Shown here: positions 5,365-61,671 of the stretch, piece after piece
Position numbering within the stretch: position 1 is the first letter of the stretch
How the letters are laid out: every line of letters begins with the position of its first letter
Virus record (IMG/VR): IMGVR_UViG_3300042154_002208
Strand: one strand, 5' to 3'
Length of the DNA stretch: 64,000 bases
Source: a virus
Taxonomy: Duplodnaviria; Caudoviricetes
Position numbers and translations under genes: made by a program
Notes under the pieces: model-generated
What the model was told of the DNA's origin: nothing
Database searches by the model: none
What the model saw: the letters and a program-made list of their open reading frames with translations, nothing else

Positions 5365-5669
5365 AGTACATTGTAGATATAGATGGAACAATCTGTTCGG
5401 TTGTTCTTAATGATGATAAGAGTGTGAATTATGATAAAACACAACCACATAAAGATAGAATTGAAAAAATTAATAAGTTATTTGATGAAGGACATGAAAT
5501 AACTTATTGGACAGCTAGAGGTTCTGCTTCTGGAGTTGATAGATCAGAATTAACTAAAAAACAGATGACAGAATGGGGAGCAAAATACCATAAGCTAGTA
5601 TTTTATAAACCCGTTTATGATATTTGGATTGATGATAAAGCTGTAAACAGCGAGGTATATTTCAAATGA
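5361..5669 (+). CDS. HAD-superfamily phosphatase
   Basis: DIDGTIC motif I, YWTARG motif II, KP..D.WIDDK motifs III/IV. Confidence 0.8.
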   Translation: MKYIVDIDGTICSVVLNDDKSVNYDKTQPHKDRIEKINKLFDEGHEITYWTARGSASGVDRSELTKKQMTEWGAKYHKLVFYKPVYDIWIDDKAVNSEVYFK

Positions 5670-42929: not shown

Positions 42930-43475
42930 ATGAAATTAAATATTGGAGCAGGTGATAAACATTATGATGGATTTTTAAATTGTGATTACGACGATAATTG
43001 TAATCCCGATTATAAATTTGATCTTGAAAACGACACATGGCCGTTTGAAGATAACTCCGTAGAAGAAGTAATTGCACATCATGTGTTAGAACACATGGGC
43101 GAGGGGTATTTTCACGCAATCAAAGAACTATACCGTGTTTGTAAGCATGATGCCATAATTGATATTGTAGTACCACATCATAGACATGAATATTTTGCAA
43201 ATGATCCAACACATCGTAGACCAATTACTGCCGAAGGATTGGGACTCTTTAGTAAAAAATACAATGATCTATGCAAACAACGAGGAGAATCTGCTTCTAG
43301 ATTGGCGCATCATTTCAATGTAGACTTTGATCTTTACACGGTAGAAAATATTCCCGATCAAAGATATTATAAAATATTCAATGGCAGACCCGAAGAAGAA
43401 GTTGAAAGATACGTACAAGAACATAATAACATTATCATGGAAGTCCACATTAAATTGAAGGTAATTAAAGAATGA
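42930..43475 (+). CDS. class I SAM-dependent methyltransferase
   Basis: KLNIGAG, DLE...WPFEDNSVEEV.A.HVLEH, ELYRVCK, DPTH. Confidence 0.85.
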   Translation: MKLNIGAGDKHYDGFLNCDYDDNCNPDYKFDLENDTWPFEDNSVEEVIAHHVLEHMGEGYFHAIKELYRVCKHDAIIDIVVPHHRHEYFANDPTHRRPITAEGLGLFSKKYNDLCKQRGESASRLAHHFNVDFDLYTVENIPDQRYYKIFNGRPEEEVERYVQEHNNIIMEVHIKLKVIKE

Positions 43476-44305: not shown

Positions 44306-46063
44306 ATGAATAAACAACTACATTTTCTTGCAGGCATTCCCCGTTCTGGTTCTACAGTTCTCGCGGCCATTTTAAATCAAAATCCAATGACCCATGTTAG
44401 TACAACATCCGGGTTGGTTCATGCCTTAGATGGCTTGGCAAATACTTGGCATAGTGCTGGGTTATTAAATGAAAACGATGCGGATCGTTCTAAGCTGGCG
44501 GCAACAATGCGAGGGACTATTGATGCGTTCTACTCTGATGTAGACAAGCCCGTTGTTATAGATAAATCTCGCGGATGGCCTATTCCACAAATTATGGCAG
44601 CCATGTCTGCGGTTCTCGAAAGAAGACCTAAAGTTATTGCAACGGTTCGTTCCGTGCCTGATTGTGCTGCATCTTTTGTTCGTGTGGCAAAACCCACAGA
44701 CTTAGATCAACTTATCTATTCAGGTCAGTTAATGGATCACCTCAAAGCTGCTTATATTTCATTGCAAGAGGGTTATAAATTTGCCCCAGAAAATTTCCTG
44801 TTTGTTGAGTATGAAGATTTAGTTAAAGATCCCAAGAAAGAATTAAAACGTATTCATGCGTTCTTGGGCCTACCAGATTTTGATTATGACTTTGGTAACA
44901 TCGATGGTTCTACAGTATCAGAAGATGATGAGAACATTCACGGTTATGCAGGTATGCATGATATTAAGCCCGTGTTACAGCGTCAGCATAATCAAGACCC
45001 AAGAGAATTATTAAAGCATCATTATCCCTCATTCTGTCAGGGTGAGTTCTGGTTAAAGACTCCTAGAACAGTACAAGAAAAACACGATCTTGATTTTCAG
45101 CTTGAAGCAAGTACCCGTGGAGATTTTGAAGAAGGTTGGAGACTATCTCAAAAGATAGAATTAGCAGAACCATTTAACCACAGAGCAGCTTACAACAGAG
45201 GTTGGTATTACTTGAGTCAAGGCCACATCCAAAAGGGATATAGCCTAATGGATCGTGGTCGCATTGTAGGTGTGTTTGGAAACAGTAGACCAGATACCCC
45301 TATGCCTATGTGGGATGGAAAAACAAAAGGTATCGTAATGTTATACCTTGAAGGCGGACTGGGAGATCAAATACACCAAGTTCGTTATGCAAAAGTTATT
45401 GCAGATCGAGGATGTAAAGTCATGGTATGTTGTACCGGTATGCTGGCATCTTTGTTTATAGATGTTGAAGGTGTATCTGCAGTAGTACAGCACGAATCAA
45501 TTTACGGTGTGTATCATGATTTCTGGGTAGCAGGTATGTCTGCAGCAGTTCCATTGGGATTAGAACTTGAGGACTTATCGGGTGCACCTTATCTCAGAAA
45601 ACCATTCTCAATCAAAGGCAAAAAGATGCGTATCGGTTTGAGATGGCAAGGCAACCCACAATTCGAGCATGAGCATCATAAGAAGTTTCCTTCTGAGTTA
45701 ATGTTTGAAGCATTACGTGGTATTAATGCAGAGTTTATTAGCTTGCAAAGAGATGAGGGCGAAGATGAATGTCCATTCTGGGTTAGAAAAGTTCCATTAA
45801 ATACATGGGAAGATACTCGCAAAGCAGTTGCAGAATGTGATCTGGTGATTAGTTCATGCACATCTGTCAGCCACCTTGCTGGTGCTATGGGTGTAGATAC
45901 ATGGGTCGTTACTCCAATTATGCCATACTTCCTATATGCTCTTCCTGGAGACAAGACACCATACTATGATTGTTTCACCATGATGCGTCAGGAAAAATAT
46001 GGAGATTGGGAAGCACCGTTTGTGAAAATTAGAGAAAAACTTTTGGGAATGAATATACAATGA
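44306..46063 (+). CDS. sulfotransferase + TPR + GT9-like (GT-B) glycosyltransferase fusion
   Basis: GIPRSGSTVL (PAPS 5'-PSB), IDKSRGW, VEYEDLV; TPR-like AAYNRGWYYL; EGGLGDQI...DLVISSCTSVSHLAGAMG. Confidence 0.85.
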   Translation: MNKQLHFLAGIPRSGSTVLAAILNQNPMTHVSTTSGLVHALDGLANTWHSAGLLNENDADRSKLAATMRGTIDAFYSDVDKPVVIDKSRGWPIPQIMAAMSAVLERRPKVIATVRSVPDCAASFVRVAKPTDLDQLIYSGQLMDHLKAAYISLQEGYKFAPENFLFVEYEDLVKDPKKELKRIHAFLGLPDFDYDFGNIDGSTVSEDDENIHGYAGMHDIKPVLQRQHNQDPRELLKHHYPSFCQGEFWLKTPRTVQEKHDLDFQLEASTRGDFEEGWRLSQKIELAEPFNHRAAYNRGWYYLSQGHIQKGYSLMDRGRIVGVFGNSRPDTPMPMWDGKTKGIVMLYLEGGLGDQIHQVRYAKVIADRGCKVMVCCTGMLASLFIDVEGVSAVVQHESIYGVYHDFWVAGMSAAVPLGLELEDLSGAPYLRKPFSIKGKKMRIGLRWQGNPQFEHEHHKKFPSELMFEALRGINAEFISLQRDEGEDECPFWVRKVPLNTWEDTRKAVAECDLVISSCTSVSHLAGAMGVDTWVVTPIMPYFLYALPGDKTPYYDCFTMMRQEKYGDWEAPFVKIREKLLGMNIQ

Positions 46064-46842
46064 TATACTTTTTAAGCGGCCTGCCAAGATCAGGCTCAAC
46101 ATTGCTTGGATCAATTTTAAATCAAAATACAGAGGTATATGTTTCTCCCACAAGTCCCTTGTTAGATTTGTTATGCCTGCAAAATGAGGCATTGAACAGA
46201 GTTACTCAGCAATATACCTTTGATGTTGAAAATCAATCCGCATCCATATACACTGCGTTACCCAAAGCATATTATGAGAGCATAAAGAAACCACACATCA
46301 TTGACAAGCACCGAGCATGGGCACGCAATGTTATGCCTGCAAAGCTACACATTTCTGAAAACCCCCGGGTCATTTGTACCAATAGACCGGTTGCAGAAGT
46401 TGTCACAAGTTTTATCAAGTTACTGAATAAAGATCCAAACAATTTTATTGATGCAGCATTAAAACAAAAACGCAAGCCGATAAATACAAACACACGAGCA
46501 ATGGAACTATGGGAATCTTATATCAGAGATCCATGGGAAAGTTTACAGATTGGCTTGAAGAATTACAAAGACAATCTATATTTTGTACAGTATGATGATC
46601 TGGTACAAACTCCTCAAAGCACAATAAATAACATATATGATTTCTTGGAAATAAATAGATATGACCACAAGTTCGATAGTATCACAAATACTTGCGGTGA
46701 AGCCAAAGATACTGCATGGGGATTGAAAGATCTGCATACAATCAGAGGTAAATTAGAAAAGACCAGTGATTCTGCACAAGAAGTACTTGGCGAGAGTTTA
46801 TGTAAATATTTTTCACAATTTGATATTAAAAATGGAATTTGA
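46060..46842 (+). CDS. sulfotransferase family protein
   Basis: SGLPRSGSTLL, IDKHRAW, VQYDDLV; paralog of the N-terminal domain of 44306. Confidence 0.85.
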   Translation: MIYFLSGLPRSGSTLLGSILNQNTEVYVSPTSPLLDLLCLQNEALNRVTQQYTFDVENQSASIYTALPKAYYESIKKPHIIDKHRAWARNVMPAKLHISENPRVICTNRPVAEVVTSFIKLLNKDPNNFIDAALKQKRKPINTNTRAMELWESYIRDPWESLQIGLKNYKDNLYFVQYDDLVQTPQSTINNIYDFLEINRYDHKFDSITNTCGEAKDTAWGLKDLHTIRGKLEKTSDSAQEVLGESLCKYFSQFDIKNGI

Positions 46843-47458
46843 TAAAAAAGTAATAGTTATAGATGATTTTTATCCCGATCCTTATATGATGCGGGATATG
46901 GCATTGAATGCGGAATACGAACCTGAAGGCCTGACACCTAACTATCCAGGGCTAAACACCACGAGATCGTATTGGGATACAACCATTACAAAAATGTTCT
47001 GTAAGGCCACGGGAGAAGATGTAAAACCTGCAAAACCCTCGGCCAATGGATTTTTTAGACATACTCGAGCAAAAGACATTGCAAAACAAATTGTGCATTT
47101 TGATCCAACACCGGGACAAACATGGGCAGGAGTAGTTTATTTAAGTCTACCCGAGCATTATGAAGGTAGAGATGCCGGAACAAAAATTGTTTCTCATAAA
47201 CGAACCGGCATGACCATTGCCCCCAAAGATTACACCGAAAGTGACGCAATTGGAGTAAAAACATTCGAAGATATGCGAAATTTCTTTGAAACTGAGGGTA
47301 TAAATACTAATTTATGGAAAACCGAATTGAATGTAGACATTAAGTTTAATCGGGCCGTGCTGTTCAGGCCCTGGTTATGGCACCATATGGGCCAACATTT
47401 TGGAACAGACGTTAACAACAGTAGATTGACACACCTTATATTCCTACAACCGGCTTAA
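46832..47458 (+). CDS. 2OG-Fe(II) oxygenase-like protein (DUF6445-type)
   Basis: IVIDDFY.DP, VHFD...WAGVVYL, FNRAVLFRPWLWHH, RLTH; start at ATG 46832. Confidence 0.75.
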   Translation: MEFDKKVIVIDDFYPDPYMMRDMALNAEYEPEGLTPNYPGLNTTRSYWDTTITKMFCKATGEDVKPAKPSANGFFRHTRAKDIAKQIVHFDPTPGQTWAGVVYLSLPEHYEGRDAGTKIVSHKRTGMTIAPKDYTESDAIGVKTFEDMRNFFETEGINTNLWKTELNVDIKFNRAVLFRPWLWHHMGQHFGTDVNNSRLTHLIFLQPA

Positions 47459-47932: not shown

Positions 47933-49063
47933 ATGGCCCTGACCATTTCCGGTTTTACTATGACCGGTAATCTTACCGCGGTACATATTCCACCCCCTCC
48001 TCCATCCTATTACCTTTGGTCATGGGGTCGCAACAATTATGGTTTATTGGGGGTAGGAGATACTATAGATAGATCTAGTCCAGTACAGGTTGGTGCTCTT
48101 GGTAATTGGTCAACTGTTTCTGGCGGAGTTTATCATAATCTATCCATTAAAACAGATGGTACCTTATGGTCATGGGGTAGAAATTATTTAGGCTTTTTAG
48201 GTCTTGGCGAGACCACCGCTAGATCTAGTCCAGTGCAAGTAGGTGCATTAACTAATTGGTCAAAAATTGCTACAGGTGGAGGCCTACACAGTTTAGCTAT
48301 AACAACCGATGGGTATTTATGGACTTGGGGTTACAATTATTATGGACAATTAGGATTAGGTAATACTACAGGATATTCAAGTCCAAAACAGATTGGCGCA
48401 TTAACTAATTGGTCAAGTATTTCTGCAGGCGGTAATCACAGTTTAGCTATCAAAACAGATGGTACATTATGGGTATGGGGGTATAACCAGTCAGGTCGAT
48501 TGGGCCTTGGCGATACTAATAATAGATCTAGCCCAGTACAAATTGGGGCTCTAACCACTTGGTCAAGTATTTCTGCAAGCAACGGCGGCTGTGCCGCTAT
48601 CAAAACAGATGGTACTTTGTGGGTTTGGGGCGGTAATTATTTTGGGCAGTTAGGATTAGGCAATACCACATATTATTCAAGTCCCAAACAAGTTGGCGCA
48701 TTAACTACTTGGTCAAGTATTTCTGCAAGCGGCGGCGGCTGTGCCGCTATCAAAACAGATGGTACTTTGTGGGTTTGGGGTAGAAATTTTGGGGCAGGTT
48801 CTTTAGGGTTAGGTGATACTATATCTAGATCTAGTCCAGTACAAATGGGGGCATTAACCAATTGGGCAAGTATTTCTGCAGGAGAACTTTTTTGTGTGTC
48901 CATTAAAACAGATGGTACACTATGGTCATGGGGACACAATGCGTATGGCCGGGTTGGAGATGGTACAACTGTTCTTAAATCTAGCCCAGTACAAATTGGA
49001 TCATCAACTACCTGGTCAAGTATTTCTGCAGGTAGCGCTACTCCATTAGCTATTAAATCTTAA
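47933..49063 (+). CDS. RCC1/BLIP-II-like propeller, copy 4
   Basis: MALTISG...PPPPP + 7 blades. Confidence 0.9.
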   Translation: MALTISGFTMTGNLTAVHIPPPPPSYYLWSWGRNNYGLLGVGDTIDRSSPVQVGALGNWSTVSGGVYHNLSIKTDGTLWSWGRNYLGFLGLGETTARSSPVQVGALTNWSKIATGGGLHSLAITTDGYLWTWGYNYYGQLGLGNTTGYSSPKQIGALTNWSSISAGGNHSLAIKTDGTLWVWGYNQSGRLGLGDTNNRSSPVQIGALTTWSSISASNGGCAAIKTDGTLWVWGGNYFGQLGLGNTTYYSSPKQVGALTTWSSISASGGGCAAIKTDGTLWVWGRNFGAGSLGLGDTISRSSPVQMGALTNWASISAGELFCVSIKTDGTLWSWGHNAYGRVGDGTTVLKSSPVQIGSSTTWSSISAGSATPLAIKS

Positions 49064-49082
49064 TAAAAATTAAAAGAACAAA

Positions 49083-50213
49083 ATGGCACTAACAATTTCA
49101 GGCGTAAGAATAAACGGAGCATTGTCTGCGGTGCATATTCCACCTCCTCCGCCACCTGCGTATTACCTTTGGGCTTGGGGTGCTAATGATTACGGTGAGT
49201 TAGGCCAAGGCGATTATAATATTAATAGATCTAGTCCAGTACAGATTGGTTCATTGACCAATTGGTTAAGTATTTCAGCCGGTGGTTATCACAGCGCGGC
49301 CACCTTCCCAAACGGGACTATATGGACATGGGGCAGTAATTATGTCGGCCAATTAGGGTTAGGAAATACTACAAATAGATCTAGTCCGGTACAAGTTGGT
49401 GCCTTAACCACATGGTCAAGTATTTCTACTGGCCAATACCACAACCTGGCCGTTAAAACAGATGGTACCATGTGGACATGGGGTGGAAATAGTTATGGCA
49501 AATTGGGGTTAGGCGATACCGCAAATAGATCTAGTCCAGTACAAATTGGCGCTTTAACTACTTGGTCATCTGTGAGTGCAGGAGGAAATATCAGTGCGGC
49601 AATTAAAACAGATGGTACATTGTGGGCGTGGGGTAGAAATTATCACGGGTCATTGGGCCAAGGTAATACTACAGATAGATCTAGTCCAGTACAAGTTGGT
49701 TCTCTAACTAATTGGTTGTCTGTTGCTGCTGCATATGTTTGTTGTCACGCAATTAAAACAGATGGTACCTTATGGTCATGGGGTAGAAATTATGCTGGCG
49801 TCTTGGGTTTAGGAGGTACTACAAATATTTCCAGTCCAGCACAAGTTGGTGCATTAACAAATTGGTCAACTGTATCTAACAGAGAACACTATTGTGCAGC
49901 AATTAAAACAGATGGTACATTATGGTCATGGGGCAGGGGTTCTCAAGGCAAATTAGGGTTAGGCGACATTACCAATAGATCCAGCCCGACTCAGGTTGGT
50001 GCATTAACTACTTGGTTAAGTGTTTCTGCAGGATATTCTCACAGCGCTGCTATTAAAACTGATGGTACTCTGTGGTCGTGGGGTAGCGGCGGCCAAGGTA
50101 GATTGGGCCTAGGTGATACTACATCTAGATCTAGTCCAACTCAAGTTGGAGGATTAACTACTTGGTTATATATTGCTGCAGGAAGTACTTTCACCGCCGC
50201 TATTAGTAACTAA
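49083..50213 (+). CDS. RCC1/BLIP-II-like propeller, copy 5
   Basis: MALTISG...PPPPPP + 7 blades. Confidence 0.9.
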   Translation: MALTISGVRINGALSAVHIPPPPPPAYYLWAWGANDYGELGQGDYNINRSSPVQIGSLTNWLSISAGGYHSAATFPNGTIWTWGSNYVGQLGLGNTTNRSSPVQVGALTTWSSISTGQYHNLAVKTDGTMWTWGGNSYGKLGLGDTANRSSPVQIGALTTWSSVSAGGNISAAIKTDGTLWAWGRNYHGSLGQGNTTDRSSPVQVGSLTNWLSVAAAYVCCHAIKTDGTLWSWGRNYAGVLGLGGTTNISSPAQVGALTNWSTVSNREHYCAAIKTDGTLWSWGRGSQGKLGLGDITNRSSPTQVGALTTWLSVSAGYSHSAAIKTDGTLWSWGSGGQGRLGLGDTTSRSSPTQVGGLTTWLYIAAGSTFTAAISN

Positions 50214-50229
50214 TTAAAAGAAGAACAAA

Positions 50230-51351
50230 ATGGATCTAATCGGAATAACTATATTTGGCGGAGTCAACATTCAGCCTCCGCCTCCGCCACCTCCTGTGCC
50301 CACATACTATCTATGGTCTTGGGGCAGAAATTATAAAGGTGTAATGGGTCTAGGTGATACTACCAATAGATCCAGTCCCAATCAAGTAGGCTCAATGAGT
50401 GATTGGTTATCTTTGGCTGCAGGAAGATACCATATGACAGCAATTAAAATCGATAACACCTTATGGTCTTTTGGTCAAAATTCAAGCGGTCAATTGGGGC
50501 TAGGCGATACCACCGACAGATCAAGTCCAACTCAAATCGGAGCATTGGCAACCTGGGCGTCATTAAGTTGCGGGGATCAGCACGCCATAGCAATTAAAAC
50601 AGATGGTACCTTGTGGGCATGGGGATACAATGGTATCGGCGGCTTGGGGCTAGGAAATTCTACAAGTTATTCAAGCCCAATGCAAGTTGGCGCGCTAACA
50701 ACTTGGTCAAGTATTGGTACCGGCGGATACAATTCGTTTGCTGTTAAAACCGATGGTACATTATGGACATGGGGATATAATGCACAAGGACAACTGGGTC
50801 TAGGCAATACCGCAGCTAGATCTAGTCCAGTACAGATTGGTGCATTAACTACTTGGTCAAAAGTTGATGGTGGAGATAAGCACACCATGGCAATTAAAAC
50901 AGATGGTACCTTGTGGGCATGGGGTGCTAGCAATCAGGGCCAAACGGGAACGGGAAGTTCTTCGTCTAGCCCAGTACAAGTTGGCGCATTGACAACCTGG
51001 GCAACATTAGGTATAACATATTTGTCATCCTCGGCAATTAAAACCGATGGTACATTATGGATGTGGGGTTCCAACGAGTCGGGACATTTAGGCCTAGGCA
51101 ATACTACCAATCAAGGTAGTCCGGTACAAGTGGGCGCGCTGACTACTTGGTCAAAAGTTAGTTTAGGACAATTCCATACTATGGCAGTTAGAACCGACGG
51201 CACATTATGGACATGGGGATTCAATGTTCAGGGTCAACTTGGTATTGGTAACACCACATATTTTTCCAGTCCAAAACAAGTTGGTGCATTAACTACCTGG
51301 TTGAATGTTACTGCAGGATATAGACATTCAACTGCAATTACATCGCAATAA
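50230..51351 (+). CDS. RCC1/BLIP-II-like propeller, copy 6
   Basis: MDLIGITIFGG...PPPPPPP + 7 blades. Confidence 0.9.
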   Translation: MDLIGITIFGGVNIQPPPPPPPVPTYYLWSWGRNYKGVMGLGDTTNRSSPNQVGSMSDWLSLAAGRYHMTAIKIDNTLWSFGQNSSGQLGLGDTTDRSSPTQIGALATWASLSCGDQHAIAIKTDGTLWAWGYNGIGGLGLGNSTSYSSPMQVGALTTWSSIGTGGYNSFAVKTDGTLWTWGYNAQGQLGLGNTAARSSPVQIGALTTWSKVDGGDKHTMAIKTDGTLWAWGASNQGQTGTGSSSSSPVQVGALTTWATLGITYLSSSAIKTDGTLWMWGSNESGHLGLGNTTNQGSPVQVGALTTWSKVSLGQFHTMAVRTDGTLWTWGFNVQGQLGIGNTTYFSSPKQVGALTTWLNVTAGYRHSTAITSQ

Positions 51352-51380
51352 CCCGTTATACTAATTAAAAGAACAAAAAA

Positions 51381-52514
51381 ATGCCATTAATTTTTTCAGG
51401 TATAACCACAAAAGGTAGTTTCGAGATGGTGTATACTCCACCACCGCCTCCCGAACCAACATCTTATCTATGGTCGTGGGGTAGTGGAAGCGACGGTCGA
51501 CTAGGTTTAGGTAATACTACAAGTTACTCAAGTCCAAAACAAATTGGTTCGTTAGGCTCTTGGTTGAATATTGCTGCCGGGTATAATCACGGCATGGCCC
51601 TCAAAACAGATGGTACACTTTGGTCATGGGGTTACAATGATACGGGTCAGTTAGGTTTGGGGGATCTTACAGATAGATCTAGTCCAGTACAGATTGGCGC
51701 AGGAACCACTTGGTCAACAATTGAAGGAAGTTTCTTCTACAACATAGCCATTAAAACAGATGGTACCATGTGGTCATGGGGTTATAATAATAGCGGTCGA
51801 TTGGGGTTAGGCAATACTACAAGTATATCTAGTCCAGTACAAATTGGTGCATTAACTACTTGGTCAAAGATTAATGCAGGTGGTCAGCATACCATGGCCA
51901 TTAAAACAGATGGTACCATGTGGGCATGGGGAGTTAATCAACACGGTGCACTGGGGCTAGGCGATACCACAAATAGATCTAGTCCAGTACAAATTGGTTC
52001 ATTAACTACTTGGTTAAATATTGCTGGAGGGTACAGGGCCAGTATGGCCGTCAAAACAGATGGTACGTTATGGTCATGGGGGATGAATGCTTTTGGTCAG
52101 TTAGGATTAAATAATTATACATATTATTCTAGCCCAAAACAGGTAGGGGGTCTAACCAATTGGTTAAGTGTTGCTGGGGGTAAATATGCTCACAGCGTGG
52201 CCCTGAAAAATAATGGCACCTTGTGGGGATGGGGTCGCAATTATATAGGAATGTTAGGTTTAGGTGGTACCACTCAATATATAAGCCCAGTTCAAGTTGG
52301 TGCTTTAACCAATTGGTCAAGTATTGATGCCGGTAGAAGTCACAGCGTGGCCATTAAAACAGATGGTACCATGTGGGCTTGGGGTGGAAATGGATCCGGT
52401 CGATTGGGGTTAGGTGATACCACAAATAGATCAAGCCCAACACAGATTGGTTCATCAACTAATTGGTCAAAGATTGATGCAGTTGGTACGTTCACCTTGG
52501 CTATTAGCTATTAA
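51381..52514 (+). CDS. RCC1/BLIP-II-like propeller, copy 7
   Basis: MPLIFSG...PPPPP + 7 blades. Confidence 0.9.
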   Translation: MPLIFSGITTKGSFEMVYTPPPPPEPTSYLWSWGSGSDGRLGLGNTTSYSSPKQIGSLGSWLNIAAGYNHGMALKTDGTLWSWGYNDTGQLGLGDLTDRSSPVQIGAGTTWSTIEGSFFYNIAIKTDGTMWSWGYNNSGRLGLGNTTSISSPVQIGALTTWSKINAGGQHTMAIKTDGTMWAWGVNQHGALGLGDTTNRSSPVQIGSLTTWLNIAGGYRASMAVKTDGTLWSWGMNAFGQLGLNNYTYYSSPKQVGGLTNWLSVAGGKYAHSVALKNNGTLWGWGRNYIGMLGLGGTTQYISPVQVGALTNWSSIDAGRSHSVAIKTDGTMWAWGGNGSGRLGLGDTTNRSSPTQIGSSTNWSKIDAVGTFTLAISY

Positions 52515-52530
52515 TAAAAAGAAAAACAAA

Positions 52531-53652
52531 ATGGCATTTACTTTTTCAGGCTTTGCAACCAACGGCAGTTTTAATCTGGTATGTCCTATACCTCCTCCAC
52601 CTCCCGCATATTATTTATGGGGATGGGGCAAAAATACCGATGGTACCGTAGGTGATAACACAACTACTGGTAGATCTAGTCCTGTGCAAGCCGGCACATT
52701 AACCACTTGGTTGAATGTTTCTGCAGGTGAATATCATGGTTTAGCACTTAACTCCGATGGCACCATGTGGTCTTGGGGAAGAAATAGTCAAGGTCAATTA
52801 GGGTTAGGTAATACTACACGTGTATCTAGTCCGGTGCAGGTTGGTGCTTTAACCACTTGGTCAACTATCGTAGGCGGGTCACAACACAGCTTAGCAGTTA
52901 AAACAGATGGCACATTGTGGTCATGGGGATATAATGCTTATGGTAAACTTGGACAGGGAGATACTATATCTAAATCTAGTCCAGTACAAATTGGTGGATT
53001 AACTAATTGGTTAAATGTTGCTGCTGGATATAGTTCCTCAGCTGTTAAAACAAATGGTACATTATGGACTTGGGGTTTTGGTATCTATGGTTTATTAGGG
53101 CTAGGTAATACTACACATAGATCTAGTCCAGTTCAAGTTGGTGCATTGACCAATTGGTCTAGCTCGACATTTGGATATCTACATTGTATGGCAATTAAAA
53201 CAGATGGCACGATCTGGGCATGGGGATATAATCCTAACGGACAACTTGGGTTAGGCAATACTACAAATATATCTAGTCCAGTTCAAGTTGGATCCGATAC
53301 AAATTGGGCAAGTATTGAAGCAGGTGAATATCAGACTTTAGCAATTAAAACCAATGGTACATTATGGTCATGGGGATGGAATAATTTGGGCAGACTGGGA
53401 CTCGGTAATACTACAGCATATTCAAGTCCAAAACAAATTGGTGCATTAACTACTTGGTCAAAAGTTTCTACGGGCTATCATGTCGCTGCAATTAAAACGG
53501 ATGGCACTCTTTGGGCTTGGGGAAGAAATACCGATGGTGAATTGGGTCTAGGTGATACTACAGATAGATCTAGTCCAGTTCAAATTGGCGCATCAACTGC
53601 TTGGTTAAATGTTTCGCTGGCTAATTATCATAGTATAGCAATCTCAAATTAA
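52531..53652 (+). CDS. RCC1/BLIP-II-like propeller, copy 8
   Basis: True start ATG 52531 (MAFTFSG), not 52414; PPPPP + 7 blades. Confidence 0.9.
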   Translation: MAFTFSGFATNGSFNLVCPIPPPPPAYYLWGWGKNTDGTVGDNTTTGRSSPVQAGTLTTWLNVSAGEYHGLALNSDGTMWSWGRNSQGQLGLGNTTRVSSPVQVGALTTWSTIVGGSQHSLAVKTDGTLWSWGYNAYGKLGQGDTISKSSPVQIGGLTNWLNVAAGYSSSAVKTNGTLWTWGFGIYGLLGLGNTTHRSSPVQVGALTNWSSSTFGYLHCMAIKTDGTIWAWGYNPNGQLGLGNTTNISSPVQVGSDTNWASIEAGEYQTLAIKTNGTLWSWGWNNLGRLGLGNTTAYSSPKQIGALTTWSKVSTGYHVAAIKTDGTLWAWGRNTDGELGLGDTTDRSSPVQIGASTAWLNVSLANYHSIAISN

Positions 53653-53666
53653 AAGAAGAACAAAAA

Positions 53667-54803
53667 ATGGCAGTCACATTTTCAGGCGGCGGATACGCAG
53701 GGGTAACAATTAACATAATTCAACCCACTCCTCCTCCTCCTACATACTATTTATGGGCATGGGGAGATGGCGGTAGCGGGCGATTGGGGTTAGGCGATAC
53801 CGCAAATAGATCTAGTCCAGTTCAAATTGGCGCATTAAGTAATTGGTTAAGTATTTCTATAGGCGATTACCATGGAGTTGGGCTTGACGTTGATAAAAAA
53901 CTTTGGACGTGGGGTAATAATTCCATAGGTGCTTTAGGTTTAGGTAATACTACAAATTATTCTAGCCCAGTACAAGTTGGCGCTTTAACTAACTGGGCAA
54001 TTCTGCGTGGGGGCGGAGAAGGTACAGCAGCTATTAAAACAGATGGTACCATGTGGGTATGGGGAGACGGCCGGTTTGGCAGGCTTGGGCTCGGCGATAC
54101 CGCAAATAGATCTAGTCCTACTCAGGTTGGAGCATTGACTAATTGGGCATCTATAAGTAACAGCTCTTGGAATATTTATGGAATTAAAACCGATGGCACA
54201 TTATGGGCATGGGGATATGGCTCAAGTGGCCAACTAGGCGATGGTACTACTATAAATAAATCTAGCCCAATACAAATTGGAGCATCTACAGATTGGAGCA
54301 AATGTGAAGGTGGAAACGGAATTGCGGGAGCGATTAAAACTAACGGCACACTATGGATGTGGGGATATAATTACAGAGGCAATTTAGGATTAGGCGATAT
54401 TACATATAGATCTAGTCCAGTGCAGGTTGGCGCTTTAACTAATTGGTTGCATATATCTGCTTCTAGATATAGTACAGCATCTATTAAAACAGATGGTACC
54501 TTGTGGATATGGGGTAGCAATTATGCTGGAACATTGGGCTTAGGTGATACTATACATAGATCTAGTCCAGTACAAGTTGGCGCACTAACTACTTGGTCAA
54601 AACTTGCTATTCCACAAGCAACATATTCGCGTGCAGCAATTAAAACAGATGGTACCTTGTGGACGTGGGGTAGCAATGGTAGTGGCCAGTTGGGGGTGGG
54701 AGATACTGCGAATAGAGGTAGTCCAGTACAAGTTGGGACCAATACAAACTGGGTAGAAGTAGTTCAAGGTAACGCCTCAAAGTTTGCATTAACCCCACAA
54801 TAA
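53667..54803 (+). CDS. RCC1/BLIP-II-like propeller, copy 9
   Basis: MAVTFSG...PTPPPP + 7 blades. Confidence 0.9.
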   Translation: MAVTFSGGGYAGVTINIIQPTPPPPTYYLWAWGDGGSGRLGLGDTANRSSPVQIGALSNWLSISIGDYHGVGLDVDKKLWTWGNNSIGALGLGNTTNYSSPVQVGALTNWAILRGGGEGTAAIKTDGTMWVWGDGRFGRLGLGDTANRSSPTQVGALTNWASISNSSWNIYGIKTDGTLWAWGYGSSGQLGDGTTINKSSPIQIGASTDWSKCEGGNGIAGAIKTNGTLWMWGYNYRGNLGLGDITYRSSPVQVGALTNWLHISASRYSTASIKTDGTLWIWGSNYAGTLGLGDTIHRSSPVQVGALTTWSKLAIPQATYSRAAIKTDGTLWTWGSNGSGQLGVGDTANRGSPVQVGTNTNWVEVVQGNASKFALTPQ

Positions 54804-54820
54804 TTAAAAAGAAAAACAAA

Positions 54821-55951
54821 ATGGCATTTACTATTTCAGGAATCGGTGGATACTCGGGTATATCATTTACCACTACTCAACCACCACCACCTCCGATATA
54901 TTATCTTTGGTCATGGGGTCAAGGTATTAGTGGTCGATTGGGGTTAGGTAATACTACAGATTATTCTTCTCCAAAACAGATTGGTGCATTGACCACTTGG
55001 TCAAGTATTGCTGCAGCAGAAGGTTGGGCAATGGCTCTAAAAACAGATGGCACAATGTGGTCTTGGGGCAGAAATTATGCAGGTCAATTAGGCTTAGGTA
55101 ATACTATATATTATTCTTCTCCAAAACAGATTGGAGCTTTAACTACTTGGGCAAATATTAGTACAGGGAAAGCGTCTAATATGTTTGCTATAAAAACCAA
55201 TGGTACCTTATGGGCGTGGGGTGGTAATTATGGTTACAAGTTAGGATTGGGCAATACTACATCATATTCTAGTCCAGTACAAGTAGGTTCCTTAACTGAT
55301 TGGGCAATTATAATTTCACTTGCTGGAAACGGTGCTGCAGCAATTAAAACCAATGGTACTATGTGGTCATGGGGACAAGGATCTAACGGGCAATTGGGAT
55401 TGGGTAATACTACAAATACATCTAGCCCACAACAAATTGGCGCTTTAACCACTTGGTCAAATATTACTAATATTAGATTTGGTGCCCTTGCAACTAAAAC
55501 AGATGGAACTTTATGGACATGGGGCGCTAATGGTTACGGCGAACTTGGATTGGGCGATACTACAAATAGATCTAGTCCTGTACAGATTGGCGCATTAACT
55601 ACTTGGCAAAGTGTTTCCGCTGGGTATTATCACGGCCTGGCTGTAAAAACAGATGGTACTTTATGGTCTTGGGGAAGAAATGCAGTAGGCTCATTGGGGT
55701 TAGGAGATACTACAAATAGATCTAGTCCAGTACAAGTTGGTGCATTAACTACTTGGTTAAATATTTCAGGAGGTGTTGAACACAATCTGGCCATTAAAAC
55801 AGATGGTACCATGTGGTCATGGGGCGATAATCAATCTGGTCGATTGGGTATAGGCGATACCACAAATAGATCTAGTCCAGTGCAGATTGGATCATTAACA
55901 AATTGGGCAAATGTTTCTGCAGGTGGTTCTTTCAGCCTGGCTATCGGTTAA
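54821..55951 (+). CDS. RCC1/BLIP-II-like propeller, copy 10
   Basis: MAFTISG...PPPPP + 7 blades. Confidence 0.9.
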   Translation: MAFTISGIGGYSGISFTTTQPPPPPIYYLWSWGQGISGRLGLGNTTDYSSPKQIGALTTWSSIAAAEGWAMALKTDGTMWSWGRNYAGQLGLGNTIYYSSPKQIGALTTWANISTGKASNMFAIKTNGTLWAWGGNYGYKLGLGNTTSYSSPVQVGSLTDWAIIISLAGNGAAAIKTNGTMWSWGQGSNGQLGLGNTTNTSSPQQIGALTTWSNITNIRFGALATKTDGTLWTWGANGYGELGLGDTTNRSSPVQIGALTTWQSVSAGYYHGLAVKTDGTLWSWGRNAVGSLGLGDTTNRSSPVQVGALTTWLNISGGVEHNLAIKTDGTMWSWGDNQSGRLGIGDTTNRSSPVQIGSLTNWANVSAGGSFSLAIG

Positions 55952-55977
55952 AAAAAAAATAAAAAAGAAGAACAAAA

Positions 55978-57105
55978 ATGGCATTTACTTTATCTGGCAT
56001 AAGCGACATAACCGGTCTTAACCTCACAACTACTCAACCTGTGCCTCCAGAATTTTACTTATGGTCATGGGGTTACCATGGTGGATATGGGCAACTCGGT
56101 TTAGGTGATGCTACTATAAGTAGATCTAGTCCAACACAGGTTGGCTCATTAACTAATTGGAGCAGTACTGCAGGAAAATACCTTCTGTCAATTGCCGCAA
56201 AAACCGACGGCACCATGTGGTCATGGGGTTACAATTCACAAGGTCGATTGGGGTTAGGCGATACCATACATAGATCTAGTCCTGTACAAATTGGAGCATT
56301 AACCACTTGGGCAAAAATAACCGCAATAAATACTGGCGGAGTTGCTATTAAAACAGACGGCACCTTATGGACATGGGGCGGTAATTATTACGGGGCATTG
56401 GGCGTAGGTGATACCATACATAGATCTAGTCCGGTACAAGTTGGTGCATTAACTACTTGGTTAAATATTTCAGGTGGTACATATCACACCATGGCAACTA
56501 AAACAGATGGCACCCTATGGATGTGGGGTAGAAACTATCATGGTCGATTGGGGTTAGGTGATACTAATAATAGATCTAGTCCAGTACAAGTTGGCGCATT
56601 AACTAATTGGTTAAAAGTTTCTGCGGCATATAACAATGCGGCCATCAAAACAGATGGTACAATGTGGGTATGGGGTCGCAATAACACCGGGCAATTGGGT
56701 TTGGGAGATACCACAAGCAGATCTAGTCCAACACAAGTTGGTGCTTTAACTACTTGGTTAAATGTTGCTGCAGGCACTTATACTAACATGGCCATTAAAA
56801 CAGACGGCACCATGTGGTCTTGGGGCAGGAATGCATACGGTCAATTGGGTTTAGGTAATACCACAGATAGATCTAGTCCAGTACAAGTTGGCGCATTAAC
56901 TAATTGGTCAAGTGTTAGTAGTCTAGGCCTCACCACGCATGCAATTAAAACAGATGGTACCATGTGGGCATGGGGCTCTAATGCAGATGGTAAATTAGGA
57001 TTAGGCAATACTACAAACTATTCAAGCCCTAAACAAATTGGCGCACGCACTACGTGGATTAGTGTTACGAACACAGACTACGTGATCCTGGCAATCTCAA
57101 ATTAA
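55978..57105 (+). CDS. RCC1/BLIP-II-like propeller, copy 11
   Basis: MAFTLSG...PVPP + 7 blades. Confidence 0.9.
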   Translation: MAFTLSGISDITGLNLTTTQPVPPEFYLWSWGYHGGYGQLGLGDATISRSSPTQVGSLTNWSSTAGKYLLSIAAKTDGTMWSWGYNSQGRLGLGDTIHRSSPVQIGALTTWAKITAINTGGVAIKTDGTLWTWGGNYYGALGVGDTIHRSSPVQVGALTTWLNISGGTYHTMATKTDGTLWMWGRNYHGRLGLGDTNNRSSPVQVGALTNWLKVSAAYNNAAIKTDGTMWVWGRNNTGQLGLGDTTSRSSPTQVGALTTWLNVAAGTYTNMAIKTDGTMWSWGRNAYGQLGLGNTTDRSSPVQVGALTNWSSVSSLGLTTHAIKTDGTMWAWGSNADGKLGLGNTTNYSSPKQIGARTTWISVTNTDYVILAISN

Positions 57106-57120
57106 AAAGAAAAACAAAAA

Positions 57121-58242
57121 ATGGCATTTACTTTTTCAGGCTTAAATTTCGTCGGCGACGTTAGCGCGCAAGCAGTCTTTCCCACTCCCGAACCTTATTT
57201 GTGGGGGTTTGGGCACAATGCTTATGGTCAGTTGGGAGATGGTACCACTACAAATAGATCTAGTCCAGTACAGGTTGGCGCAGGAACCACTTGGTCAAAG
57301 ATTGAGGCAGGTCAAAGTCAAAGCGTAGCCCTCAAAACAGATGGTACCATGTGGTCATGGGGTAACAACAGCGCGGGTCGATTAGGGTTAGGCGATACTA
57401 CCAATAGATCTAGTCCAGTACAAATAGGTTCTCTAACTACTTGGTCAAAAATAATCAGTAAAGTTCATTCGTTAGCTATAAAAACGGATGGATCTTTGTG
57501 GGGCTGGGGTAGAAATGGTTTCGCGGGCTTAGGTCTAGGCAATACCACATATTATTCAAGTCCAAAACAAATAGGCGCATTAACCAATTGGTCGAATATT
57601 TCTGCACGTGGCCATAGTCTGGCAATTAAAACAGATGGTACCTTGTGGTCTTGGGGCGGCAATAGTTCTGGCAATCTAGGCCTAGGTAATACTACAGGTA
57701 TATCTAGTCCACAACAAGTTGGTTCATTGACAAATTGGCTAAGTGTAGCTGCCGGCGGATATTTTAGTTCAGCTGTCAAAACAGGTGGTACATTATGGGC
57801 ATGGGGAAGTAATCAATTTGGGCAATTGGGTTTAGGTGATACCGCAAATAGATCTAGTCCAGTACAGATTGGATCATTGACAAATTGGTTAAGTGTTGCC
57901 GGAGGCCAATATCATATTTCAGCAATTAAAACCGACGGCACTCTATGGACATGTGGCCGCGGCAGCAGTGGCGCGCTTGGCGTAGGCGATACCGAAAATA
58001 GATCTAGCCCAACTCAGGTTGGCGCATTAACTACTTGGTACATCAGCTCAAGCAGCAACGGTTTTAATTATTCAATTAAAACAGATGGGACATTGTGGAC
58101 ATGGGGCAGAAATGATTTCTATGGACAACTTGGTTTAGGTGATACTGCAAATAGATCTAGCCCAGTTCAGGTCGGAGCATTAACTAATTGGACAAATATT
58201 GCCACTGGAGAAATTCATGGCTTAGCAATTTCAACTGGATAA
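57121..58242 (+). CDS. RCC1/BLIP-II-like propeller, copy 12
   Basis: MAFTFSG...PTPEP + 7 blades. Confidence 0.9.
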   Translation: MAFTFSGLNFVGDVSAQAVFPTPEPYLWGFGHNAYGQLGDGTTTNRSSPVQVGAGTTWSKIEAGQSQSVALKTDGTMWSWGNNSAGRLGLGDTTNRSSPVQIGSLTTWSKIISKVHSLAIKTDGSLWGWGRNGFAGLGLGNTTYYSSPKQIGALTNWSNISARGHSLAIKTDGTLWSWGGNSSGNLGLGNTTGISSPQQVGSLTNWLSVAAGGYFSSAVKTGGTLWAWGSNQFGQLGLGDTANRSSPVQIGSLTNWLSVAGGQYHISAIKTDGTLWTCGRGSSGALGVGDTENRSSPTQVGALTTWYISSSSNGFNYSIKTDGTLWTWGRNDFYGQLGLGDTANRSSPVQVGALTNWTNIATGEIHGLAISTG

Positions 58243-58305
58243 CACAGTATTTGTGTTTTAACAGGCAATAAATAATAAACAATTTTAACATGGAGTGATT
58301 AAATT

Positions 58306-59097
58306 ATGACACAGAGAATTTTAGTAATGGGTTTACCAGGCTCAGGCAAGACATATCTTTCCCAGTATATTTTAGAATACCTGCAAAGAGAAAAGAAAAC
58401 AGTTTCTTGGCTCAATGCTGATGATGTTCGTAAAAAATACAATGATTGGGATTTCAGTAAAGAGGGTCGCATTCGTCAAAGTTTACGTATGCGAGAACTT
58501 GCTGATGGCATGACAACTGATTATGTTATTTGCGATTTTGTTGCACCTTTACCCGAGATGCGAAACAATTTCAAAGCAGACTGGACTGTATGGGTTGATA
58601 CAATTGAAAAAGGCCGCTTTGAAGATACCAACAAGGCATTTGTGCCGCCAGATGTATATGACTTTAGAATAACAGAACAAAATGCAGAGAAGTGGGCAGA
58701 GTTTATTGTGGCTCACATTTATGATAACAGACGCAGACCAACATTTGACTGGCAAAAAGAAAGCGCGTTGCTATTAGGCAGATATCAACCGTGGCACCCT
58801 GGGCATAGAGCATTGTTCGAAAGAGCAATTGCCAAGACAGGACAAGTTATTATACAAGTACGCGATTGTCAAGGTTGGAATGGTTCTAATCCTTTCGAAT
58901 TTAGGAAAGTTAAAGAATTTATTGAGAGAGATCTCGATACTTTATTTCAAGGGCAATATCAAATTATGTTAGTTCCTAACATAACCGAAATTGTTTATGG
59001 AAGAGATGTTGGCTACAGAATAACGCAGGAAACATTTTCTGACGAGATACATTCTATTTCTGCTACGAAAATTCGTAAAGAAATGGGATTGCAATAA
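58306..59097 (+). CDS. cysC: adenylylsulfate-kinase-like domain fused to a HIGH-type nucleotidyltransferase domain
   Basis: GLPGSGKT P-loop, LNADDVR, DFSKEGRIRQ, DFVAP (APS kinase pattern); C-terminal LGRYQPWHPGH...ISATKIR. Confidence 0.75.
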   Translation: MTQRILVMGLPGSGKTYLSQYILEYLQREKKTVSWLNADDVRKKYNDWDFSKEGRIRQSLRMRELADGMTTDYVICDFVAPLPEMRNNFKADWTVWVDTIEKGRFEDTNKAFVPPDVYDFRITEQNAEKWAEFIVAHIYDNRRRPTFDWQKESALLLGRYQPWHPGHRALFERAIAKTGQVIIQVRDCQGWNGSNPFEFRKVKEFIERDLDTLFQGQYQIMLVPNITEIVYGRDVGYRITQETFSDEIHSISATKIRKEMGLQ

Positions 59098-60223: not shown

Positions 60224-61120
60224 ATGGCAAGATTTACTTTAAATAATGTTAGTTTTTCCGGAAGCATAAACACCGCTGAAGCACCAGTTGCGGCCGCAGG
60301 CGGAGGCGGGTTGTATACCTATACCAGTCCCATAACAATATCCTCTAATAGATCATTATCCGGACCAAATGATTCTACACCTACTACAGGACAATCTGCC
60401 GCAGAAATTTATGGGTATTTTAATTCATCGTCACAAACCGATGCGTATAATGCCATGGTTGCCGCCACATATATCAAAATACCTTCCGCGGCAGGCTACA
60501 TTTATTTTACAATTCCAGAAACAGGTACCTGGCGAATAAAAGCTCAAGGTGGATCTGGAGGATACACAAATAAAAGTTCAATGATGGGTGCTGCAGTACA
60601 GGGTGATTTTTCACTAACGTCTGGCGATGTGCTTTGGATAACTATAGGCGGAGCCGGTGCATATGGAAATGCAGGTAGTTCTGATCTGGCTGGCGGTGCA
60701 GGTGGAGGATTTAGCGTGGTTGCAAAATCATCTTCAGGAAGCTCGACATTCTCAGGTGGCGATATGACGGCATTGCTAGTTGCAGCCGGTGGTCTGGGTC
60801 AAACTGAAGGAAGGCACGGATCTTATGCTTCTGCCTCAAGCTCAGCTAATGGAACAGGCGGAACAGGATTCAATACCAATTGGAAAAATCAGAATATACC
60901 TGGCGGGGGATCTGGGTACGGCGGGCAGACAACATATGGTGGCTTTGGCGGTGGAACCGGTACGGATGATGGGTTTGGCGGTGCAGGATCGTACGATGAT
61001 TTATATGCTGGCGCGCCAAACTCATTTGTAAACGCATCTGCAGCTAATATAGTAAGAGAAAATACCGGCACATTGGTATCATCATGGAATCACGGTGCAG
61101 TGCGATTAACTAAACTATGA
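60224..61120 (+). CDS. glycine-rich adhesin-like protein (ALK/LTK-type glycine-rich domain)
   Basis: GTWRIKAQGGSGG...GAAVQGDFSL.SGD.L.I.IGGAG...GGGFSVV...LLVAAGG. Confidence 0.65.
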   Translation: MARFTLNNVSFSGSINTAEAPVAAAGGGGLYTYTSPITISSNRSLSGPNDSTPTTGQSAAEIYGYFNSSSQTDAYNAMVAATYIKIPSAAGYIYFTIPETGTWRIKAQGGSGGYTNKSSMMGAAVQGDFSLTSGDVLWITIGGAGAYGNAGSSDLAGGAGGGFSVVAKSSSGSSTFSGGDMTALLVAAGGLGQTEGRHGSYASASSSANGTGGTGFNTNWKNQNIPGGGSGYGGQTTYGGFGGGTGTDDGFGGAGSYDDLYAGAPNSFVNASAANIVRENTGTLVSSWNHGAVRLTKL

Positions 61121-61671
61121 TAAAAGTAATTGATAATTTTTTACCCAATGTTCTTTTTAGACGAGTTAAGGATACTTTAAATTCGTCTCAGTTCAAATGG
61201 AGCAGGTATGAAAATATTGTAGGCAATGCTGCAAAGGTCGATCCATATAAAACAGTTGATGGATTTTCATCTATAGTTGATATTAGAAATACAAAAGAAA
61301 CTGGAATTTTTATTCCGTTGTTAGATTATGTTGCAGAAGAATTAAATGTTAGTCCCCATGCTGTTATGAGAATGTATATCAATCTGACAACTCCTCAATA
61401 TGGGTGGAATGTTGGAGATATATCATATCCTCACATTGATGATAATGAACCGCATACTGTTGCACTATTTTATATAGATGATGCAGATGGCGATACATAC
61501 TTATTTGATAACTATGGGCCATCTATGAAACAAGAATTTAAGGTTAAGGAAATTATAAAACCTGAACCTAATAAATTATTATTATTTGACGGAATGCAAT
61601 TCCATGCAGGAAATCCGCCATTGACAAGCAAAAAAAGAATTGTTGTTAACATGAATTTTAGAAAACAATAA
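61117..61671 (+). CDS. 2OG-Fe(II) oxygenase
   Basis: VIDNFL, PHID, FYIDDADGDT, PNKLLLFDG..FHAG, RIVVNMNF (HxD...H...R). Confidence 0.85.
   Translation: MIKVIDNFLPNVLFRRVKDTLNSSQFKWSRYENIVGNAAKVDPYKTVDGFSSIVDIRNTKETGIFIPLLDYVAEELNVSPHAVMRMYINLTTPQYGWNVGDISYPHIDDNEPHTVALFYIDDADGDTYLFDNYGPSMKQEFKVKEIIKPEPNKLLLFDGMQFHAGNPPLTSKKRIVVNMNFRKQ

Follow-up and report, generated by a model that had tools for sequence, protein, structure and literature searches.

We describe here a gene in a 64,000-nucleotide stretch of viral DNA (Duplodnaviria; Caudoviricetes; IMG/VR record IMGVR_UViG_3300042154_002208), the whole of which is referred to as the window. The gene, at positions 58306-59097 on the + strand, encodes a protein (P0001) in which a short relative of adenosine 5'-phosphosulfate (APS) kinase is followed by a very small nucleotidyltransferase (NT) domain of the HIGH superfamily, which we call mini-NT. 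On the basis of comparative genomics, fold and sequence, and not of biochemistry, we consider that P0001 is probably a compact two-step sulfate-activating enzyme, with mini-NT making APS from sulfate and the kinase converting APS to 3'-phosphoadenosine 5'-phosphosulfate (PAPS) for sulfation by the phage. The gene and its two parts are as follows.

58306-59097, + strand: whole open reading frame (ORF) of P0001, a single intact frame for a candidate two-domain PAPS synthase of 263 amino acids (aa) plus stop.
58306-58740, + strand: residues 1-145, lid-less APS-kinase-like P-loop domain (PF01583, PDB 2yvu, Foldseek, alignment with CysC).
58741-59094, + strand: residues 146-263, mini-NT of about 115 aa, a proposed ATP sulfurylase (profiles, fold and motifs).

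The strand opposite 58306-59097 is riddled with stops and offers no competing long frame. PHROG 10255 ("kinase") matches P0001 over its full length (E 3.5e-50), which argues that the two-domain form is a recurrent family and not a chance fusion or an assembly artefact. The AlphaFold2 model, built from 51 family members, has a mean pLDDT of 94.7.

With regard to the kinase half, the Pfam profile APS_kinase (PF01583) matches residues 5-91 with E 4.3e-10 and 40.3 bits (cut-off 21.1), covering only positions 5-94 of the 152 in the profile, and the NCBIfam model TIGR00455 gives 29 bits on P0001, far under its cut-off of 138.7. APS kinases are the best PDB sequence matches of this half (2yvu, E 2.8e-6), and a Foldseek search of the PDB places APS kinases, and nothing else, in about the first 30 positions (target TM-score 0.6-0.76, E 1e-6 to 2e-5). 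The residues conserved across the family are those of the P-loop G9-T16 (GLPGSGKT), D39, R42, F50-S51, R55, R61, F78, P81, R86 and P115. On alignment with canonical CysC, D39 and R42 fall in the DGDxxR motif, F50-S51 in GFS, R55 and R61 in DRxENIRR and F78-P81 in SFISP. By both sequence and fold the N-terminal domain is a divergent, lid-less relative of APS kinase.

In the case of mini-NT the motifs are GRYQPWHPGH (158-167), NPF, PNIT, YGRDVGY (231-237) and ISATKIR (251-257), and the residues that are invariant or nearly so in the family are G158, R159, Q161, P162, H164, G166, H167, R186, N195-P196, P224-N225, Y231-G232-R233, G236-Y237, I251-S252 and R257. CTP_transf_like (PF01467) matches the C-terminal half with E 4.9e-4 and 20.7 bits, slightly under the 21-bit cut-off. 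The NCBIfam models for nicotinamide mononucleotide (NMN) adenylyltransferase (NMNAT) match from about residue 152 with E 4.5e-6 to 2.5e-5, far under their curated cut-offs (NF002243, 26.4 bits vs 127; TIGR01527, 23.9 bits vs 181.2), and PDB 2qjt matches this half with E 2.3e-5. The profile for the Sat type of ATP sulfurylase, PF01747, found no match in P0001 at E up to 1, and no ATP-sulfurylase model matched; nor did a search of the PDB with a mini-NT profile bring up any Sat at E up to 1. A mini-NT from a bacterial operon (L035) discussed below gives 19.3 bits (E 8e-4) with PF01747, under the cut-off of 24.3.

Modelled alone, mini-NT has a pLDDT of 94.5, and DSSP assigns three clear strands only. 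The ATP sulfurylase of Thermus (1v47) superposes on it with Z 8.8 and a root-mean-square deviation of 3.0 Å over 112 of 118 residues, the remaining Sat structures giving Z 5.5-6.3. Set against the NMNAT MJ0541, mini-NT is without about 25 aa after beta-3 and about 35 aa of C-terminal helices. In HIGH nucleotidyltransferases these two elements, the post-beta-3 insert and the C-terminal helices, shape the pocket for the second substrate (NMN), and their loss would thus fit a very small second substrate such as sulfate. The N-terminal PUA-like domain of Sat is also absent, residues 1-145 of P0001 being the kinase. Mini-NT falls in the branch of NMNAT and phosphopantetheine adenylyltransferase (PPAT) and outside the Sat family, a placement that does not fix its substrate, and any sulfurylase activity would accordingly be an independent recruitment.

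An earlier note on this DNA, made from the letters alone, had read 58306-59097 as one two-domain ORF of 263 aa, with APS-kinase motifs in an N-terminal P-loop domain and GRYQPWHPGH and ISATKIR in a C-terminal domain of about 115 aa. All of this is borne out: there is one open frame, with PF01583 above cut-off, the Foldseek matches and the aligned CysC motifs in its N-terminal half, and a HIGH core with the two named motifs at 158-167 and 251-257 in its C-terminal half.

The family is a large one. Metagenomes hold more than 8000 relatives of P0001 at 75-89% identity, the fusion is present on more than 600 viral contigs, some of them of 340-380 kb, and DNA of the window is found in many lake-water metagenomes. 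A 4-kb stretch compared at the DNA level with a phage collection found no match. Homologues in cultured phages have 36-42% identity and come from Sanovirus siphophages of Xylella, Stenotrophomonas and Xanthomonas, and from DLP_6. In Sanovirus phages the fusion overlaps an upstream gene for a NADAR-domain protein (L001:6565-7738 in Xylella phage Sano; L002:6565-7741 in Stenotrophomonas phage Bhz60), and a few kb upstream there are genes for a "cysteine dioxygenase" and MazG. On jumbo-phage contigs of 50-340 kb (L005, L006-L009) close relatives of the fusion have as neighbours genes for PhoH, DnaJ, a chaperone like ClpB and a solute-binding protein of the TctC family.

Three domain architectures were distinguished, by script, among the results of an exhaustive HMMER search and a scan of species genomes. 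The one seen in P0001, short kinase followed by NT, is shared by phages and many Alphaproteobacteria, among them Bradyrhizobium, Rhizobium and Inquilinus. In the second the order is reversed and NT is followed by a canonical full-length CysC; this form occurs in abundant marine bacteria and is itself abundant in the Tara Oceans data. The example P0238, from the OCS116 order, has 48% identity to the C-terminal domain of P0001 over 113 aa, and its kinase half matches PF01583 with E 5.7e-63 and TIGR00455 with 233.6 bits (cut-off 138.7). In the third NT stands alone, and here a short kinase gene lies directly upstream and overlaps it in eight of nine loci, the ninth ending at a contig edge. Fused, reverse-fused or overlapping, mini-NT is thus always paired with an APS-kinase-type partner in the loci examined.

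Two further cases may be mentioned. In Ralstonia phage RsoM2USA, which has a kinase-only gene, the next ORF proved not to be a split-off NT; the sole HIGH NT of this phage is a separate 348-aa NadM-like frame. In P0290 (L017:2133-3302) the kinase and nucleotidyltransferase are combined differently: a short-kinase relative forms one chain with a sugar-phosphate nucleotidyltransferase (PF00483), and its gene adjoins a CTP_transf_3 gene.

The kinase-NT enzyme is not phage-specific, and its bacterial settings are informative. One alphaproteobacterial operon (L035), all on one strand, comprises genes for CbiX, a siroheme methylase, CysI, CysH, a DUF2061 protein, the short kinase and mini-NT; the contig is cellular, with RNase E/G, PBP1A and a release factor in its flanks. 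In the order to which it belongs, surveyed at 60% completeness or more (90% or more gave a single genome), mini-NT is present in nine of nine species genomes, Sat in one and a CysD-sized match in none, and in eight of the nine cysH is about 1.3 kb upstream of mini-NT on the same contig and strand. The CysH of this operon carries the motifs CCxxRKxxPL and SxGCxxCT, which we take to mark the Fe-S, APS-capable type of reductase. The cysH-cysP-sat-cysC operon of B. subtilis is a precedent for an APS kinase gene beside such a reductase.

In ten genomes of the order OCS116 there was no Sat, no CysD or CysH above cut-off and no AprA, and the sole APS kinase is the one fused to NT. The third setting is SAR11, where one locus (L038) has, 1.7 kb upstream of its aprB-aprA genes, a split kinase/NT pair (5591-5998 and 5965-6372); the AprBA enzyme, too, acts on APS. 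Among 101 Pelagibacterales genomes (G021 and G033-G132, requested completeness at least 85%) 82 have a stand-alone mini-NT and 82 have AprB, with both in 80, NT only in two, AprB only in two and neither in 17, which makes mini-NT near-core in SAR11 and its occurrence almost a copy of that of AprB. Sat is present in three of the 101, and in 14 genomes mini-NT is 1.5-2.7 kb from aprB; adjacency to aprBA was not seen in a second SAR11 locus (L049). There are then three independent bacterial contexts that need an ATP sulfurylase and offer only mini-NT.

An incidental remark in the literature is that "most SAR11 lack ATP sulfurylase", AprAB being present and expressed (PMC10356861), and a preprint of 2026 that treats 135 complete genomes of Pelagibacter names AprA-AprB alone. 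Mini-NT is possibly the ATP sulfurylase thought to be missing from SAR11, and from its gene neighbours in phages and bacteria it is probably a third kind of ATP sulfurylase.

The other recurrent association is with sulfotransferases. These were counted with a domain-only hidden Markov model (HMM), since a second-round HMM also caught proteins with TPR repeats only. Of 80 phage loci, 40 have a clear sulfotransferase domain no more than 6 kb away; in 14 of these 40 the sulfotransferase gene abuts or overlaps the start of the fusion gene, mostly by 4 nt, and in one more it lies 28 bp downstream. The figure for cellular loci, within about 6 kb, is 12 of 80. Two genomes (G017, G018) have a single Sulfotransfer_3 gene each, and it adjoins the kinase-NT locus; in a third (G019) both such genes are adjacent to that locus, and in Bradyrhizobium acaciae (L054) this is true of two of the four, both TPR-sulfotransferases directly upstream on the same strand. 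Around the marine NT-CysC fusion the gene cluster is conserved and includes TPR-sulfotransferases and a giant RTX-like protein.

Several other neighbours were observed. In marine Alphaproteobacteria (L018-L022, L039-L041) and in the B. acaciae locus there are a protein of about 660 aa without Pfam match, giant HemolysinCabind (RTX) proteins and 2-oxoglutarate (2OG)-oxygenase fusions, and the B. acaciae locus also carries an HlyD secretion gene. This context suggests that proteins secreted by the type-1 route are sulfated, a situation that recalls RaxST/RaxAB. A DUF2061 membrane protein of about 90 aa recurs beside the kinase/mini-NT pair (L035:5199-5486; L005:11436-11639; L055) and is also in phage loci L103, L120, L122, L123, L144 and L156; in several phages its gene is the next one after the fusion. 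This protein may belong to the system as an additional part, perhaps one that takes up anions. Genes without Pfam match two to three positions upstream of the fusion (L005, L006) gave sub-threshold matches to Sulfotransfer_3 (E 0.006-0.009) and were not used as sulfotransferases. A neighbour family of cellular loci ("component 1") consisted of antisense ORFs from genomes rich in GC and was discarded as an artefact.

In the window itself the genes upstream of the fusion that concern us are these.

42930-43475, + strand: methyltransferase-like protein upstream of the sulfotransferases (PF08241, E 2.2e-5).
44306-46063, + strand: sulfotransferase 1, 585 aa, sulfotransferase domain N-terminal, a presumed PAPS consumer (PF13469, E 2.3e-17; PF00685, E 1.7e-13).
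46060-46842, + strand: sulfotransferase 2, 260 aa, sharing 4 nt with the gene of sulfotransferase 1 (PF13469, E 1.1e-15; PF00685, E 1e-13).
46766-47458, + strand: DUF6445 protein after the sulfotransferases, a possible tailoring enzyme (PF20043, E 2.8e-11).
47933-58242, + strand: tandem array of nine paralogues with an RCC1-like beta-propeller, lying between the sulfotransferase genes and the fusion (first and last matched RCC1 and WD40_RLD, E about 1e-70).

The two sulfotransferases that the earlier note had reported are confirmed by both profiles. In the nearest virus record (G001) the layout is like that of the window, with the fusion about 11.4 kb from two sulfotransferases. The RCC1-like paralogues number at least ten, of about 375 aa each (41233-42354 and the nine of the array), and all of them begin with a conserved MAFTxSG and contain a linker rich in proline; they lie in a structural or tail region that also holds proteins of 909 to 2092 aa. 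It is conceivable that the RCC1-like proteins are sulfation targets or diversified receptor-binding proteins. Downstream, at 61117-61671 (+), there is a 2OG-Fe(II) oxygenase-like protein, a weak match under the cut-off (E 2.5e-4). The presence of oxygenase-like, DUF6445 and methyltransferase-like genes near the sulfation genes suggests a tailoring set that hydroxylates, sulfates and methylates. Far from these, 4266-5018 (+) encodes a PfkB-family kinase, with the profile matched in the C-terminal part only, and 5666-6445 (+) an NAD-dependent epimerase/dehydratase, with small ORFs between; the region 3917-6445 (+) may encode a sugar-nucleotide (heptose-like) pathway.

The signals ahead of the fusion gene are the following.

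58292-58295, + strand: Shine-Dalgarno-like GGAG, 10 nt before the ATG, by direct reading of the sequence.
58267-58274, + strand: AATAAATA, a motif like the T4 late promoter, 32 nt before the ATG, speculative and from a motif count.
15322, 16425, 35570, 58267 and 59093, + strand: copies of AATAAATA ahead of start codons.

The motif AATAAATA has nine copies in the window, 11.7 being expected from shuffling, so that there is no overall enrichment; eight of the nine are on the + strand and five of the nine are 24-39 nt before a start codon. A promoter and terminator scan gave no signal exceeding shuffled expectation. In two lake metatranscriptomes there are contigs 97-98% identical to parts of the gene, one of which spans the domain junction, with the 3' part not covered. 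They are a weak hint that the gene is expressed, as contigs from RNA libraries do not prove transcription.

From the domains, conserved residues, folds, pairing and genomic associations, all of them directly observed, we infer the two catalytic activities, the substrate of mini-NT and the existence of a sulfation target. In the first step mini-NT, using HxGH, GRD and ISxTxxR, would move AMP from ATP to sulfate to give APS and pyrophosphate, reversibly, and in the second the lid-less kinase would, by homology, phosphorylate the 3'-OH of APS to give PAPS. The reaction of ATP sulfurylase has a very unfavourable equilibrium, which APS kinase normally draws forward, and it is thus thermodynamically sensible for the two to be fused or tightly paired, the second step here presumably pulling the first one forward. 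PAPS made in the phage would feed the two sulfotransferases at 44306-46842, which together with the methyltransferase-like and DUF6445 proteins probably modify some target.

There is also evidence that weighs against this proposal. In the kinase half the first Asp of DGD is replaced by Asn37 in the alignment with canonical CysC, and most of the mobile lid (…RDPKGLYKKAR…FTGI…) has gone through two deletions totalling about 19 residues, the KG and F…ExP parts being retained; with these changes kinase activity is not guaranteed. In the case of mini-NT, an exhaustive structural comparison gave the best Z for NMNAT (10.2), NadM (10.1) and PPAT (10.0), the Foldseek top 50 were without any Sat and began with archaeal NMNAT, NadM and PPAT, and a mini-NT profile matches the NMNAT MJ0541 at E 1.9e-12. 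Sat has the signatures QxRNPxHxxH and GRDHAG, and while mini-NT has the HxxH and the GRD it does not have the QxRNP. With regard to gene context, the sulfotransferases of the window are 11.5 kb upstream of the fusion gene, on the same strand but not adjacent to it, and the Sano-type siphophages and DLP_6 carry the fusion with no recognisable sulfotransferase, none being detectable anywhere in the Sanovirus genomes. Jumbo phages of Ralstonia have the short kinase without mini-NT. For the bacteria, the absence of Sat and CysD comes in part from incomplete metagenome-assembled genomes and from single-cell genomes, and the Fisher p of 3.5e-15 for co-occurrence of mini-NT and AprB in SAR11 ignores shared phylogeny. 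Finally, where CysH is APS-capable or AprBA is present an APS kinase is not obviously needed, and the kinase-like partner could there be structural or regulatory.

These points bear on three other explanations. It may be that the kinase half alone serves sulfur metabolism, converting host APS to PAPS, with mini-NT a non-catalytic module for nucleotide binding, oligomerisation or allosteric control. Partner domains that have degenerated are familiar from this pathway: fungal ATP sulfurylase carries a regulatory APS-kinase-like domain, and among our fold matches is 3cr8, which we take to be a Thiobacillus APS kinase with an inactive ATP-sulfurylase-like domain. Many hosts make their own APS, and mini-NT is extremely small, with its three clear strands. 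We nevertheless consider this explanation unlikely, as HxGH, GRD, ISxTxxR, R159, Q161 and R186 stay invariant, or almost so, in sequences of about 35% identity, unlike what is seen in a degenerate domain, and as the OCS116 order, the order of G024 and most SAR11 have no other sulfurylase that forms or consumes APS, so that their APS kinase, CysH and AprBA would be orphaned if mini-NT were inactive.

The other two explanations keep mini-NT active but change its substrate. One is that it adenylylates selenate, phosphate, phosphonate or a sugar phosphate, the kinase then phosphorylating the product and the neighbours with a sulfotransferase fold using the analogue. The deletion of the lid could indeed shift the specificity of the kinase, and P0290 is a case of a short kinase relative in company with nucleotidyltransferases of another kind. 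However mini-NT is also fused to canonical, high-scoring CysC and co-occurs with CysH, CysI and AprBA, all specific for APS or sulfite, while enzymes of PF13469 and PF00685 use PAPS, as far as known, and we regard a different activated donor as very improbable. The least probable of the three in our view is an enzyme resembling NadR or coenzyme A (CoA) synthase, with mini-NT adenylylating NMN or phosphopantetheine and the kinase acting on nicotinamide riboside or on the ribose of the product, perhaps for regeneration of NAD+ by the phage against NAD-depleting defences. NMNAT, NadM, NadR and PPAT are the best sequence and fold matches of the C-terminal domain, some relatives are annotated at source as "nicotinamide riboside kinase" or "phosphopantetheine adenylyltransferase", and the NADAR family, whose gene the fusion overlaps in Sano-type phages, is linked to NAD and ADP-ribose. 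Against this, the scores are far under all curated cut-offs for NMNAT and PPAT (26 bits vs 127), the region after beta-3 and the C-terminal helices of NMNAT are deleted, and the kinase resembles APS kinase and not nicotinamide riboside kinase (Nrk) or dephospho-CoA kinase (DPCK). No NAD or CoA genes recur nearby, the recurrent ones being those for sulfotransferases, cysH/cysI, aprBA and canonical CysC.

Two-step sulfate activation by P0001 thus remains the reading that we prefer, and the view of the earlier note, that a 263-aa enzyme makes PAPS for two sulfotransferases, is supported by the pairing, the linkage to sulfotransferases and the lineages without Sat. Within the HIGH superfamily, to which the note assigned the C-terminal domain, this domain is in the NMNAT/PPAT branch and not a member of the Sat family, and the structural comparison with Sat and NMNAT that the note had called for gave a shared HIGH core (Z 8.8 with 1v47) but closer kinship to NMNAT, NadM and PPAT (Z 10.0-10.2). 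The enzyme is not confined to phages: it occurs in them, on the more than 600 viral contigs, but also in many Alphaproteobacteria and, as a split pair, in SAR11. On balance we favour the wider proposal, drawn from the same comparisons, that mini-NT is a third and unrecognised class of ATP sulfurylase, forming with a lid-less kinase the smallest known PAPS synthase, that it is the "missing Sat" of SAR11 and the sole sulfate/APS enzyme of several streamlined marine Alphaproteobacteria, and that it is widely used by freshwater phages for sulfation.

To our knowledge only the Sat and CysDN classes carry out sulfate activation. If the proposal is correct, genomes scored as without ATP sulfurylase may have one after all, among them those of the OCS116 order, of a further streamlined order of Alphaproteobacteria and of most SAR11, and gene-based inference on the sulfur cycle would change. 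Mini-NT would complete AprBA-dependent sulfite oxidation in most SAR11, which bears on how they dispose of sulfite from catabolism of taurine and other organosulfur compounds and on whether they gain ATP in doing so. For phages, the widespread "cysC" would be one of the two halves of a PAPS source that is complete in itself and serves phage sulfotransferases, and not a boost for host cysteine synthesis, and phage-directed sulfation of some target would be implied. A single-chain PAPS generator of 263 aa would possibly be useful for enzymatic sulfation in biotechnology.

Among the auxiliary metabolic genes described for large phages of fresh water is a "cysC", with transcripts reported in lake metatranscriptomes, and it is read there as serving assimilatory sulfate reduction (10.1101/655167; 10.1101/2023.05.30.542503). 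Judged by description and not by sequence, it is probably of the same family as P0001. The COBRA text has neither "sulfotransferase" nor "PAPS", and the passages concerned of both phage-cysC papers say nothing of a second domain. In the literature on alternative ATP sulfurylases, on DUF2061 with sulfate activation and on phage PAPS or sulfotransferase modules we found no description of the mini-NT domain.

Among known systems the closest in plan are the bifunctional PAPS synthases, metazoan PAPSS1/2 (1x6v) and the Sat-CysC of Aquifex (2gks). There too both activities are on one chain, as proposed for P0001, the kinase domains are homologous, and the PAPSS order, with kinase N-terminal and nucleotidyltransferase C-terminal, is that of P0001. 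However P0001 has 263 aa as against about 520-625, has lost about 19 residues of the lid, and has an NT that is not of the Sat family (no PF01747, PUA-like domain or QxRNP). Sat itself (PF01747; Thermus 1v47, yeast 1j70) has in common with mini-NT the Rossmann-like HIGH core, H-x-x-H, the G-R-D loop and a motif like IS-x-T-x-x-R, but the catalytic domain of mini-NT is about half the size and the N-terminal PUA-like and C-terminal domains are lacking. The nearest relatives of mini-NT are the archaeal and NadM-type NMNAT enzymes (MJ0541, 1f9a; 1ej2; 2qjt), which share GRFQPxHxGH and ISxTxxR. They differ in context, as the neighbours of mini-NT are CysC, sulfotransferases, cysH/cysI and aprBA and never NAD genes, with NADAR beside it in Sano-type phages only.

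With regard to function the best parallel is with NodPQ and RaxPQ, in which a dedicated ATP sulfurylase and APS kinase supply PAPS to a specific sulfotransferase. The fusion would likewise be a private supply of PAPS beside sulfotransferases, and the HlyD-type gene of B. acaciae parallels the rax cluster. NodP and RaxP are CysD-type PP-loop enzymes that work with a CysN GTPase, whereas here a single small HIGH domain would act without a GTPase.

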